Virus record (IMG/VR): IMGVR_UViG_3300028591_000113
Location: 46,087-110,086 of that record
Reading direction: 5' to 3' (one strand)
Source: a virus
Lineage: Duplodnaviria > Heunggongvirae > Uroviricota > Caudoviricetes
DNA length: 64,000 bases
A program made the translations under genes and the position numbers. The notes beneath the pieces are model-generated. The model did no database searches. It had not been told where the DNA came from and was given only the letters and a program-made list of their open reading frames with translations. Below are positions 3,574 to 17,515 of this stretch, piece after piece (the stretch's first letter is position 1; every line of letters begins with the position of its first letter).

Positions 3574-3642
3574 CTTTTAATTGACATAAGGCATTAAATA
3601 GTTTATACTTATTATAGAAAAGTAGAAAAAGGATTTAATTTT

Positions 3643-3864
3643 ATGACCAGATACATTATAGTCTTTGAAAATGATATGCTTAATATGAGTGTGACAGAGT
3701 CTTTTTACGTCCGTGATGATGAAAATGAAGACGATGTTCAAAGACGTTTATACGAAATGTGTGATGAAATTGCACACGAGTATTGCGATGACGAAGAAGA
3801 GTTTGAAGAATGCGCTGGTGCAACTACATACAAAATAATTGGTTATGTATATATAAATGAATAG
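3643..3864 (+). CDS. small acidic hypothetical protein
   Basis: ORF preceded by conserved upstream motif TTATACTTATTATAGAAAAGTAGAAAAAGG. Confidence 0.55.
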   Translation: MTRYIIVFENDMLNMSVTESFYVRDDENEDDVQRRLYEMCDEIAHEYCDDEEEFEECAGATTYKIIGYVYINE

Positions 3865-3879
3865 AAAAGAGGAAATTAT

Positions 3880-4089
3880 ATGGCACGCTATTTTGCTAGA
3901 TTAACTTGCCACCGTTCAAATGGTGACGAAGATCTTTACGAAAGTGATTTTAATACAGAAGATGATATTAAACAATGGGTTGAAAAACACTCATATAGAG
4001 ATGTTTTAACAGGCGTTCTCGTTGAATGGACACCATGTTTTGTCTATGACAGCGAAGAAAAGAAAGACATTACATCTAAGTTTTGCTAG
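3880..4089 (+). CDS. small acidic hypothetical protein
   Basis: ORF with GAGGAAA RBS. Confidence 0.55.
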   Translation: MARYFARLTCHRSNGDEDLYESDFNTEDDIKQWVEKHSYRDVLTGVLVEWTPCFVYDSEEKKDITSKFC

Positions 4090-4146
4090 ACTTAGTGTCT
4101 TTTTTGTTATATAATTATTATAGAAAAGTAAAAGAGGTAAAAAATT

Positions 4147-4554
4147 ATGAGTAGAACAATACAATTAAGAAGACGTGAATTAGTCTGGGAGACAAGAAGT
4201 ATCACTTGGACAGAAGAAGATTATCAAAAAATGTTAGAAAGTCTGAAAGGTTATAAAGCCCAAGCGAGTGAAACTTCGTCAAACTGGTATAAACGTTGCT
4301 CTCAAGAGTATGATTTACTTAGTCAATATACTTGGGACCAAGTTTGCGACATCATACAAGGCAAAGTTGAAGACCCAGAGATAAAAATTAAATACAGCAA
4401 TGAGGATAGTGGTTATACAGAGTTCCTTAGTTCAATCGTAAATGACTGGATGCGCGAAGATTGTTACGACGCCCCAGTTGAAGATACTGATTATGCTGAC
4501 GATTTCTATGAAGAAACCTATGTTGACGAATTCGAGGACAAAGCCAATGATTAA
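4147..4554 (+). CDS. acidic hypothetical protein (135 aa)
   Basis: ORF preceded by conserved motif TTATAATTATTATAGAAAAGTAAAAGAGG. Confidence 0.6.
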   Translation: MSRTIQLRRRELVWETRSITWTEEDYQKMLESLKGYKAQASETSSNWYKRCSQEYDLLSQYTWDQVCDIIQGKVEDPEIKIKYSNEDSGYTEFLSSIVNDWMREDCYDAPVEDTDYADDFYEETYVDEFEDKAND

Positions 4555-5254
4555 TAGAATATTAGCATTTACCATTATTGCAGTTCTCGTAATAATTGGT
4601 TGGATTATGTATTGGAGATACGAATATGCTAAAATTCGTTATGAACCAATCGTTGAATCAGAAGAACAAGTAAAGTATATCGAAGAAATCCGCACTAACA
4701 TTACTAAACAAGTGAGTTCCGCATTTTGCGCGATTCATCATGTAGGTTTAGATGATGAAGATGCGGTTAAAATCAGTTATCAAGTCATTGGTTATACATC
4801 AAACTTAATGTTGGTGTTAATCGGGTCTCACTGGCTCAAAGCGTATTTTGATTGGTATACTCATAAAGTTACATTAGAATACTATCTCGGTGGCGATAAA
4901 CCACGTATTTATAAGTTCCGTTTCAATAGTGCGGGAGTAATCCCAATGGGTAAATTAATTAATGTTTGGTATAAAGATATGGTTAGATTAGAGAGAGATG
5001 AACAAGACAGTTATTCTCTTCCTGAATTACTAAAAATTGCGAAAAATACTGAACAAGCGCTTTGGAAACAACAAGACTACGAAGAATTACTTAAAAACAT
5101 TTTAGACGAGTACGCAAAACAAGTTTCTTCAATAGAAGACGTAGGCGTATTCTGTGCGCTAGTTAACATACTTGCCAAAGGAAAAAGGGCGCGCGAAGTT
5201 ATAAAAACAATGCTGCCCCAAAACGAAGATAGCGGAGAAGAAGAAGCCAAATAG
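4546..5254 (+). CDS. membrane-anchored hypothetical protein (N-terminal TM helix)
   Basis: ATGATTAA start overlapping upstream stop; hydrophobic N-terminus ILAFTIIAVLVIIGWIMYW; followed by terminator 5240-5268. Confidence 0.55.
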
Positions 5255-5330
5255 GCTTCTTTTTTGTTGGACAAAATGTAAAAGTTATGTTAATATATAT
5301 TATAAAGATAAGATAAGGAGAAAAAAAGAT

Positions 5331-5639
5331 ATGACCAAGGAAGAATTCATTGATGAATTAAAAGATAGTATTAGTGGTATGTTCCTTGATGCGGAGTTTA
5401 CCCAAGAACTTAAAGAAAAATACGAGGAAAATTTTGGTCAACTCGACCCAGATTGGAAACTCGATGAAATAAGCGATGCATTTTGTGATTTAGGCGAAGA
5501 GGCTGAAGACGAAATGCGCGATAATTTAGCCAATGCTATGTGGGATTGGCTTGACGGCATTACTATTAAACAAACTTATCCAGAAGATGCCCCTGGACAA
5601 TTACATTTATTTGATGATGATGACAGACCAATAAAATAA
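5331..5639 (+). CDS. small acidic hypothetical protein
   Basis: ORF with AAGGAG RBS. Confidence 0.55.
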   Translation: MTKEEFIDELKDSISGMFLDAEFTQELKEKYEENFGQLDPDWKLDEISDAFCDLGEEAEDEMRDNLANAMWDWLDGITIKQTYPEDAPGQLHLFDDDDRPIK

Positions 5640-5648
5640 GGAGAAACT

Positions 5649-16146: not shown

Positions 16147-16662
16147 ATGCCAAATGAAAAGATAAAAGTTCTATTCTTAGATGTCGATGGAGTTCTAAAC
16201 TCTACCGCAGAACTTTTTGATGACCGCGCAATTAATCCGAAAAAATTAGAAATCCTTAAAACTATTATTGATAAGACAAATGCTAAGATAGTTTTAACTT
16301 CTACTTGGCGTTGTTTTGTTAATAAGTTAAGTGCTGTTATTGAGGCACTTGAAACTGTTAATTTAGAACTCTATGGCATTACTCGTGAAGGAGTTGCTAT
16401 GAAAGACTTCAAAAATACTCCTTGGGCTAATGTAAAACGTTGCCCTTCCTATATTTATGAAGATGATATAAATAACGATCGCGGGGCAGAGATTGCCTGG
16501 TGGATTTGGTGCAGAAGAGAAAAAATAGATAAGTTTGCCATCGTTGATGACGAAGATGTTGATATTCGTAAGTATTTCCCAAATAACATTGTGAAAACAG
16601 GATTTTCAACAGGGCTTACTTCAGAAGACGCGGCGAAAATAGTAAAGATACTGGAGGATTAA
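16147..16662 (+). CDS. HAD-superfamily phosphatase (DxDxV motif FLDVDGVLN)
   Basis: N-terminal motif I LFLDVDGVLN, motif II S/T (LTSTW), C-terminal acidic Asp cluster (VDDEDVD). Confidence 0.6.
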   Translation: MPNEKIKVLFLDVDGVLNSTAELFDDRAINPKKLEILKTIIDKTNAKIVLTSTWRCFVNKLSAVIEALETVNLELYGITREGVAMKDFKNTPWANVKRCPSYIYEDDINNDRGAEIAWWIWCRREKIDKFAIVDDEDVDIRKYFPNNIVKTGFSTGLTSEDAAKIVKILED

Positions 16663-16664
16663 CC

Positions 16665-17060
16665 ATGAGTATTTTAGACAGTGAATATTTTTATGATGTT
16701 TATTGTAGTAAATTAGCAGACGAATGTAATAGTCTTAAAGAGGCTTTATCTTGCTATTGCGAGGAATGTGGCAATGGTGCTGATGTTATTCGTTATTATG
16801 TGGAACGCCATGAAAAAGACGAAAACTTTGAAACAGAAGTTGAACTTTTAGGCTATCCAAAAATCGCGCAATTACTTGACATTTTATTGCCTACTAAGTA
16901 TGACATTATGAAACCTTGGTATAAACGTCAATGTCTCAGTTTACTCGGAGAAGACGATAAAGACTTAACTGCGCACGAAAAGCATTGGAAGCGCATTATT
17001 GCTAATATTTATGATTATTACAAAAAAGGTTTCGATAAAGTTGACGAAACTCTTGACTAA
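16665..17060 (+). CDS. hypothetical protein (131 aa)
   Basis: ORF. Confidence 0.55.
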   Translation: MSILDSEYFYDVYCSKLADECNSLKEALSCYCEECGNGADVIRYYVERHEKDENFETEVELLGYPKIAQLLDILLPTKYDIMKPWYKRQCLSLLGEDDKDLTAHEKHWKRIIANIYDYYKKGFDKVDETLD

Positions 17061-17248
17061 ACCCGAAAATTATTTTATAATACTTATAGAAAGATAAGAA
17101 AATATCTTTTATTAGTTGAAAGGAGAACTACGCTATGACAAAACTAATATCTAAACAATTTAGACTCAGTTGCCAACGCTCAATGAAGTGTATGTTTTCC
17201 TATGCTAGTAAGAGATAATTAGTTTTACCTAATACCACGATTAATTAT

Positions 17249-17283
17249 TACCACTAGTATAGGAAATACTAGTGGTTTTTTAT
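17249..17283 (+). terminator. Rho-independent terminator (ACCACTAGTA-n-TACTAGTGGT + T6)
   Basis: 10-bp perfect stem + TTTTTT. Confidence 0.7.
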
Positions 17284-17287
17284 TGAT

Positions 17288-17363
17288 GCGTGGGTACCCA
17301 AGCGGCTAAGGGAGCTGGCTGCAACCCAGTTATTCGGGGGTTCGAATCCCTTCTCACGCTCCA
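17288..17363 (+). tRNA. tRNA-Cys (GCA)
   Basis: Acceptor GCGTGGG/CTCACGC, anticodon stem GCTGG/CCAGT loop CTGCAAC, T-loop TTCGAAT. Confidence 0.75.
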
Positions 17364-17378
17364 TACTTGGATCGTTCG

Positions 17379-17456
17379 CCAAGCAGTTCTAAGGCCCTCG
17401 GCCCATAACCGAGTTATCGTGGGTGCGAATCCTACACGATCCACCAAAATAATTTA
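17379..17456 (+). tRNA. tRNA with CAT anticodon (Met or Ile2-lysidine type), C33 in loop CCCATAA
   Basis: Acceptor GGATCGT/ACGATCC perfect, anticodon stem CTCGG/CCGAG, T-stem GTGGG/CCTAC. Confidence 0.6.
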
Positions 17457-17515
17457 TAGACATAATTGAAAAGTTATGTTATAATAAATATGTAAGAAAA
17501 AGAAAGGAAGATATT

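Follow-up and report, generated by a model that had tools for sequence, protein, structure and literature searches.

A repeated promoter–leader module, often joined to a terminator, probably heads early transcription units in an uncultivated TGA-recoded phage

Introduction

What kind of element recurs just upstream of small genes in a phage genome, in one orientation and often directly behind a hairpin? The question is raised by a stretch of 64,000 nucleotides (nt) of a Caudoviricetes genome (IMG/VR record IMGVR_UViG_3300028591_000113), hereafter the window, which belongs to a metagenome contig of 76.5 kb (ENA ERZ27256846 k141_2710361). Nearly all of its genes lie on the + strand, and they include genes for a GyrB-like topoisomerase and an ATP-dependent ligase as well as 34 tRNA genes (33 called and one missed tRNA-Tyr). 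No close DNA relative was found among deposited phages. A preliminary description of the window reported a module composed of a −10-like hexamer, a conserved box and a ribosome-binding site before many of these genes, and proposed a phage-specific promoter and leader class, possibly middle or late, or recognised by a phage sigma factor. Here we describe the anatomy, spacing and conservation of this module, which we consider probably to be an early promoter–leader cassette for the host sigma factor that is fused to a terminator and also serves as a joint for gene exchange.

Copy number and anatomy of the module

The repeat is a real and functionally coherent regulatory element. Five near-identical copies, modules 1 to 5, lie upstream of the ATGs at 3643, 4147, 6511, 13134 and 15879, as first reported, and all of them are intergenic, on the + strand and contained within 12.3 kb. 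The sequence originally quoted for the module has 29 nt, not 30, and no perfect copy; it is found three times at 1–2 mismatches (4109–4137, 6471–6499 and 13095–13123), compared with none expected from 100 shuffles. The 10-mer TAGAAAAGTA occurs six times, always on the + strand (0.46 expected), with sites in the five strong copies (3615, 4121, 6483, 13107 and 15858) and one stray site at 15777. A general repeat finder independently recovered a 55-nt unit eight times in register (239, 3576, 4082, 6444, 7299, 8942, 13068 and 17048), and a second family from the same program adds 15812 and 21137. About ten looser copies accompany the five strong ones, and ~13 family members lie between 0.2 and 21 kb, every one on the + strand. 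The degenerate copies reported before the tRNA-Gly gene at 9017 and the ATGs at 17516 and 35460 are also real. A further copy, given as 17070, exists at 17076–17096 but had been wrongly described, as there is no open reading frame (ORF) behind it.

The anatomy is as originally claimed, with a TATAAT −10, a conserved box and a ribosome-binding site, often fused to a terminator; the −10 is TG-extended in two of the strong copies (at 13096 and 15845) and in looser copies at 17480 and 5291. A consensus promoter scan, which reports sequence match only, places a −35-like hexamer exactly 17 nt 5′ of the −10 in four of the five strong copies. Downstream of the −10, six A/T-only bases are followed by the box AGAAAAGTA, by (AAAG)AGG and by the ATG, and a Shine–Dalgarno (SD) sequence, GAGG or AAGG, ends the module 7–11 nt before the ATG in all five. 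The RNA predicted from the box onward is unstructured (0 to −5 kcal/mol, z ~0). The consensus of 36 family promoters from three genomes is T.GAC..(17 nt)..TATAAT-aaTTaT-RtAAA. The strict pattern TATAAT-N6-RKAAAG was uninformative, since AGAAAAG copies escape it, and the idea of a tandem arrangement in which the TATTAT after TATAAT is the working −10 was rejected, as the −35 lies 17 nt from the first hexamer.

A terminator directly before the copies is found for modules 3, 4 and 5, whose hairpins have predicted energies of −15.5 kcal/mol (z −6.3), −11.9 kcal/mol (z −3.6) and −13.8 kcal/mol (z −4.8), respectively, but the hairpin of module 2 is weak and module 1 has none, carrying a TTGACA −35 instead. 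The stems are GGTGGAC..GTCCACC or CTCTGG..CCAGAG. In the three terminator-linked copies the −35 hexamer is located inside the hairpin and a T-run follows, so that one sequence both closes the upstream unit and opens the next.

In the arrangement that we favour, the −35-like hexamer (TGGACT or TAGACT) lies in the stem and loop of an intrinsic terminator for the upstream unit, and the T-run of this terminator forms the 17-nt spacer. The consensus TATAAT, preceded by TG in the two copies named above, then leads into six A/T-only bases, the discriminator (TATTAT or AATTAT), and into the unstructured, purine-rich start proposed for the transcript, AGAAAAGUA(AAAG)AGG, which continues into the SD sequence and the ATG. 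Host RNA polymerase with its housekeeping sigma factor would read the modules as soon as infection begins, with transcripts that start at the A of AGAAAAG or close to it, ~7 nt 3′ of the −10, and the conserved discriminator and initial transcribed sequence would favour strong initiation, promoter escape and a short open leader for translation. The ~30–40-nt core, present in many copies in one orientation, would in addition act as a homology patch at which related phages gain, lose or swap the small genes downstream.

Sigma factor and timing

Assignment of the modules to a middle or late class, or to a phage sigma factor, is not supported, given their match to the host sigma-A/sigma-70 consensus, their location in a TGA-free region and the presence of the same module type before the phage sigma operon in relatives. 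The ratio of in-frame TGA to TGG codons is 1/79 in 1–24 kb, 26/40 in 24–42 kb and 78/59 in 42–64 kb, and all of the strong modules lie in the TGA-free part, between 3.6 and 16 kb. TGA-recoding phages have been proposed to begin infection in the standard code and to switch part-way through (bioRxiv 10.1101/2021.08.26.457843); the placement of the modules in the TGA-free region, taken with this proposed switch, points to early timing. The genes behind the strong copies encode proteins of 73–259 amino acids (aa) without an assigned function, and not replication, structural or lysis proteins. Six of the eight small genes tested had no PHROG match, and the other two matched weakly to families of unknown function. 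No second promoter class could be defined by eye before the recoded genes (24–64 kb), where only sigma-A-like arrangements of terminator and −10 were seen.

The search for a phage-encoded sigma factor, which had been suggested at the outset, gave a mixed answer. There is no sigma homologue within the window, but full sigma genes are present in the relatives L004 (1789–2622), L007 (1628–2461) and L008 (2560–3396), ~5.5 kb upstream of the modules, and the contig from which the window is taken (L002) ends inside such a gene, with the last 59 residues encoded at L002 2–181, 854 nt upstream of window position 1. The protein has 277–278 aa and is SigA/RpoD-like, with regions 1.2–4 and without region 1.1; its best match among deposited phages has 43% identity over the aligned part. 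When it was aligned to Bacillus SigA for residue comparison, with residues numbered as in E. coli sigma-70, the helix that reads the −35 (TRERIRQ) proved intact. The −10 region carries the changes Y430C, W433P and T440M, positions 430 and 433 being two key −10 aromatics, and the positions that read the TG extension carry H455N and E458Q. These altered residues suggest a poor fit with promoters in which TATAAT is perfect and TG is often present. Furthermore, the sigma operon lies behind a module-type promoter in L004, L007 and L008, which means that the host enzyme has to recognise this copy at least.

It is consequently unlikely, in our view, that the modules form a phage-specific middle or late class read by the phage SigA-like sigma, with the discriminator and box as its specificity element. 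That such a gene lies close to the modules in relatives speaks for this possibility; its combination of a retained −35 helix with −10 and TG residues unlike those of SigA makes a changed downstream preference conceivable, and the stretch 3′ of the −10 is conserved beyond generic promoter needs. However, such a sigma, devoid of the TG-reading residues and of two −10-melting aromatics, would have to serve modules with perfect TATAAT elements, two of them with TG. In addition, the sigma operon of three relatives itself needs the host enzyme, and the genes that follow the modules are ORFans of the TGA-free part rather than replication or structural genes.

From 24000 to 64000, the later part of the window uses TGA as a sense codon, and the long-ORF coverage of 42–64 kb doubles when it is read in this way. 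A tRNA at 42843–42939 with anticodon UCA, called ‘SeC’ by ARAGORN, is likely a TGA suppressor. Directly after it lie five tandem paralogous ORFs (42949–47242, +) of 277–295 aa, with pairwise identities of 26–53% and 6–9 in-frame TGA codons each.

Position of the purine box

The spacing of the box was determined in the 36 family promoters, which come from the window and two diverged relatives, and the box could be located in 32 of them. It begins 6 nt 3′ of the −10 in 26 of these 32 promoters (s.d. 0.7), whereas 17–41 nt (s.d. 5.3) separate it from the ATG. In nine cases a box-bearing promoter is followed not by an ORF but by a tRNA or an ORF-free stretch. Both ORF-less copies that were tested (8984 and 17088) have a 5′-proximal hairpin beginning 1–4 nt into the box, in keeping with transcription starting at the box, since a 5′ hairpin that stabilises a primary transcript would be expected there. 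The fixed spacing to the −10, the variable spacing to the ATG and the existence of ORF-less copies together indicate that the box belongs to the promoter and transcript start, and we infer that it sits at the transcription start. The motif is thus not merely AT-rich context of ribosome-binding sites without positional conservation, since the box keeps its place relative to the −10 rather than to the ATG. A promoter-plus-leader class, as originally envisaged, fits all of the sequence evidence.

The box could alternatively act mainly in the RNA, as a translation enhancer or standby site, or as the target of a phage repressor or RNase that silences early messages. The sequence AGAAAG has its complement at the 3′ end of Firmicute 16S rRNA, and the box resembles the 5′ part of an extended SD sequence, AGAAAGGAGG. 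The leaders are purine-only and unstructured and continue into the SD sequence, with protein genes behind all five strong copies. Nevertheless, an RNA-level role appears improbable, because it is the distance to the −10 that is constant and that to the ATG that varies, because box-bearing copies also stand before tRNA-Gly and ORF-free stretches, and because the box has no dyad symmetry.

Conservation in related contigs

Homologues of ORF 6511 with 83%, 74% and 53% identity led to contigs L004, L007 and L008–L010, all of which retain modules at the same sites. The most distant of them has an overall DNA identity of only ~68%, yet ahead of its ORF 6511 homologue there is hardly any change in the hairpin and −10, and the box persists as AAGAAAAGTAAG. 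A 21-mer scan of metagenome and genome collections gave mostly single unrelated matches, the only clade members being L019, L031, L035, L038, L051, L064 and L079. Protein-seeded searches of IMG/VR loci with ORF 6511 and ORF 4147 returned no match. An exact 20-mer in IMG/VR was found in one unrelated contig (L001), where it overlaps an ORF end behind TTGACA-17-TATACT, and was treated as chance or convergence.

A repeat without a function of its own, its copies alike only through recent duplication of a generic AT-rich promoter and leader along with small genes, would accord with the low-complexity, AT-rich sequence, with the clustering of the five strong copies and with the identical 21-mers found singly in unrelated genomes, yet it has little probability, since the consensus, including the 6-nt spacing, is retained down to 53% protein identity, where the flanks are ~68% identical or unalignable, and since the copies are intergenic throughout and in a single orientation, with a chance expectation of 0–0.5.

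Gene turnover at the modules

Comparison of the window with L007 placed breakpoints within modules. Seven of the 12 left breakpoints lie at most 45 nt 3′ of a −10 (Table 1; P ~4e-6 under a null uniform over non-coding DNA), an enrichment that the test overstates, because any gene-by-gene turnover puts breaks at the 5′ edges of genes. Direct support for recombination between modules comes from the module-flanked insertions alone. The extra 168-aa gene of L007 has a module copy on each side, with ~35 nt common to both, and in L031 three small genes lie between two identical hairpin-plus-module copies. L019 and L064 share the same gene and leader but differ in their hairpins.

Two small genes between tRNA genes, at 11474–11734 (86 aa) and 8024–8209 (61 aa), are also missing from L007, and the latter is preceded by a terminator hairpin at 7983–8005.

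Points against a host-sigma early cassette

Like the caveats on the breakpoints, several observations weigh against an early host-sigma cassette that doubles as a joint for gene exchange. The −35 of module 3, TGGATT, matches the consensus at only three of six positions, and the hairpin of module 2 (4087–4100) has a predicted energy of just −3.1 kcal/mol, with 29 of 200 shuffles as good. Two loose module-like promoters, at 35429 and 39080, adjoin genes with in-frame TGA. The phage sigma, being SigA-like with an intact −35 helix, could also use the module promoters. Unrelated metagenome contigs and Firmicute genomes also contain single copies of the 21-mer, often with an evident promoter and SD sequence, for example before a Clostridium homopropionicum gene, and the similarity among modules may in part reflect convergence on a generic strong promoter and leader of low-GC genomes. 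Finally, it is from the sequence that we infer the start site, the strength, the form of sigma or polymerase, the timing and the recombination mechanism.

Further family members and neighbouring features

Table 1 Modules, further family members and left breakpoints relative to L007 (window coordinates)
Feature	Position	Strand	Elements and context
Module 1	3581–3642	+	TTGACA 3581–3586, 17-nt spacer, TATACT 3604–3609, TATTAT, box AGAAAAGTA 3616–3624, purine leader ending AAGG, ATG 3643; no hairpin, no TG
Module 2	4087–4146	+	TAGACT 4087–4092 within weak hairpin and T-run, TATAAT 4110–4115, TATTAT, box 4122–4130, GAGG 4134–4137, ATG 4147; no TG before −10
Module 3	6440–6510	+	12-bp hairpin 6440–6471 containing TGGATT and AACCC motif, TATAAT 6472–6477, TATTTT, box 6484–6492, AAGG 6497–6500, ATG 6511
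Module 4	13070–13133	+	terminator hairpin 13070–13088 containing −35 TGGACT 13073–13078, T-run, TGtTATAAT (TATAAT 13096–13101), AATTAT, box 13108–13116, GAGG 13120–13123, ATG 13134
Module 5	15818–15878	+	terminator hairpin 15818–15838 containing TGGACT 15822–15827, TGtTATAAT (TATAAT 15845–15850), TATTATAT, box 15859–15867, GAGG 15868–15871, ATG 15879
Degenerate copy before tRNA-Gly 9017	8947–9016	+	TGGACT-17-TATAAT (8970–8975), TATTATAT, AGAAAGTTA 8984–8992; predicted 5′ hairpin on transcript, no ORF behind
Family member	7304–7364	+	perfect TTGACA-17-TATAAT (7327–7332), AATTAT, GTAAAGATA 7339–7347; ORF-free stretch behind
Family member first given as 17070	17053–17110	+	TTGACT-17-TATAAT (17076–17081), ACTTAT, AGAAAGATA 17088–17096, then 5′ hairpin and ORF-free stretch as far as tRNA-Cys 17288
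Degenerate copy	17457–17515	+	TAGACA-17-TGtTATAAT (17480–17485), AAATAT, GTAAGAAAAAGAAAGGAAG, ATG 17516
Related cassette	5243–5330	+	hairpin GAAGCC..GGCTTC 5243–5259 and T-run, TGGACA 5268–5273, TGtTAATAT (5291–5296), ATAAAGATAAGATAAGGAG, ATG 5331
Family member	244–300	+	TGGACT-17-TATAAT (267–272), ATATAT, GTAAGATG; heads ~1.6-kb ORF-free stretch
Boxless promoter	14880–14914	+	perfect TTGACA-17-TATAAT (14903–14908); heads 0.9-kb ORF-free stretch
Loose copy	21142–21192	+	hairpin and T-run, TATACT 21170–21175, ATATAT, AGGGAAATAAT, ATG 21193
Loose copy behind terminator	35405–35459	+	TATAAT 35429–35434, TATTAT, GATAAAGGAG, ATG 35460
Loose copy	39060–39108	+	TGcTATAAT (39080–39085), ATATAT, AGAAAGTAGGA, ATG 39109
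Left breakpoint	3631		module 1; 73-aa gene missing from L007
Left breakpoint	6502		module 3; extra 168-aa gene in L007
Left breakpoint	7364		promoter 7304–7332; ~350 nt in window, ~70 nt in L004 and L007
Left breakpoint	8994		copy 8970; tRNA-Gly in window, protein gene in L007
Left breakpoint	13116		box end of module 4; one unrelated gene in place of two
Left breakpoint	14914		promoter 14880–14908; ~300 nt in window, ~60 nt in L007
Left breakpoint	15875		module 5; one gene in place of two

A subset of the promoters carries an extended −35 motif, T(T/G)GA(C/T)(A/T)(A/T)AACCC, at 244–258, 6449–6463, 7304–7318, 8947–8961 and 17053–17067, and the motif also occurs at ~1455 in L004, before the sigma operon. 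The AACCC part lies in the spacer, at ~−29 to −25, a position not usually conserved in housekeeping promoters, and could be the site for a regulator.

Three ORF-free stretches on the + strand, ~273–1886 (~1.6 kb), 7333–8200 and 14909–15810 (each ~0.9 kb), each directly follow a strong sigma-70-type promoter, which in two of the three is a perfect 12/12 match. All three are conserved in relatives, the first and third with 88–90% identity, and predicted folding beats 20 of 20 shuffles for 14915–15812 (z −2.4) and 280–1270 (z −1.8). The three stretches have no Rfam match, and nothing useful emerged when ORF-free sequence downstream of consensus promoters was scanned by Rfam E-value. We regard these stretches as candidate large non-coding RNAs.

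The missed tRNA-Tyr(GTA)-like gene lies at ~8209–8291 (+); it was not called by ARAGORN and scores 23.9 bits, below the Rfam gathering score. The tRNA-Tyr genes of Enterococcus Schiekvirus phages, EFDG1 among them, match it with 97% identity over 67 nt, and this region, with 67–94 nt aligned to such phages, was the sole match in an INPHARED megablast of 3000–9000. Just after the tRNA region lies a full-length ROOL RNA (23707–24300, +; Rfam RF03087, score 196 bits, gathering cutoff 99). Further downstream, a cyclic di-GMP (c-di-GMP)-I riboswitch aptamer (28772–28847, +; RF01051, score 58.8 bits, gathering cutoff 35) is located directly upstream of ORF 28870–29445 (191 aa), which is apparently under the control of a host second messenger.

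Discussion

The closest known analogues of the module are the PeSL (promoter-early stem-loop) cassettes of the T4-like phages RB49/phi1, PST and nt-1 (PMC2839356, PMC4122927). Like these, the module is a short repeated unit in which a sigma-70-type early promoter overlaps or abuts a terminator stem-loop and which ends in an SD sequence and ATG. Both kinds of element are clustered before ORFans in variable regions, and in both cases relatives differ by gene gains, losses and replacements that have the cassettes as their limits; PeSL crossovers have been mapped between the −10 and the SD sequence or ATG (PMC2839356). There is, however, no sequence homology, the PeSL stems being G-tract/C-tract. 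The phage described here is not T4-like: it has Gram-positive-type signals (TG-extended −10 elements and strong GGAGG-type SD sequences) and TGA recoding, and no T4-like relative was found, the INPHARED megablast giving a tRNA match only. The best-conserved part of the present module is the stretch 3′ of the −10, comprising the discriminator and the initial transcribed box. Mini-circles and promoter and terminator activity were demonstrated for PeSL, whereas the promoter and terminator activity of the modules is predicted. In those features that sequence can reveal, the module is a PeSL analogue in a different phage lineage and not a homologue.

Other systems share single aspects. The initial transcribed sequence of the T5 promoter N25 modulates productive initiation and escape (PMC12464699, PMC5961368). 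Promoters of this kind resemble the modules in being strong host-sigma promoters whose initial transcribed region is rich in purines and leads into the SD sequence, and differ in phage, host and sequence. Gentz and Bujard reportedly described in 1985 that T5 promoter classes share class-specific downstream homologies, and we know of no description of terminator fusion or cassette shuffling for T5 promoters. In SPO1-like Firmicute phages, host sigma-A reads the early genes before phage sigmas take over (PMC13401047). SPO1 likewise has many small early genes, each with its own strong promoter, but its sigmas gp28 and gp33/34 are small and divergent and serve non-sigma-A promoters, in contrast to the near full-length SigA/RpoD-like protein encoded here. 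Morons are genes with their own promoter and terminator inserted between phage genes. The small genes or gene groups behind the modules are, similarly, autonomous promoter–terminator units that are present or absent between relatives; unlike in morons, which are not defined by one shared promoter sequence, their boundary element is a conserved repeat.

We regard as doubtful the further idea that the A/T discriminator and the AGAAAAGTA box constitute a dedicated recognition element for a phage factor, most attractively the phage SigA-like sigma; if true, the phage would run a private ‘housekeeping-like’ transcription programme on the cassettes, possibly coupled to the switch into the TGA-sense code.

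The repeat itself is of modest interest, and the phage that carries it is more unusual, with its code switch, SigA-like sigma, large ORF-free transcribed stretches, ROOL RNA and c-di-GMP riboswitch. The modules provide candidate promoter–leader parts, compact and probably strong, for low-GC Gram-positive hosts. They map the likely early transcription units of an uncultivated TGA-recoded phage lineage, and they suggest a separate origin, in a phage whose signals are of the Gram-positive type, for composite terminator/promoter shuffling joints, which so far have been described for T4-like phages of Gram-negative hosts.

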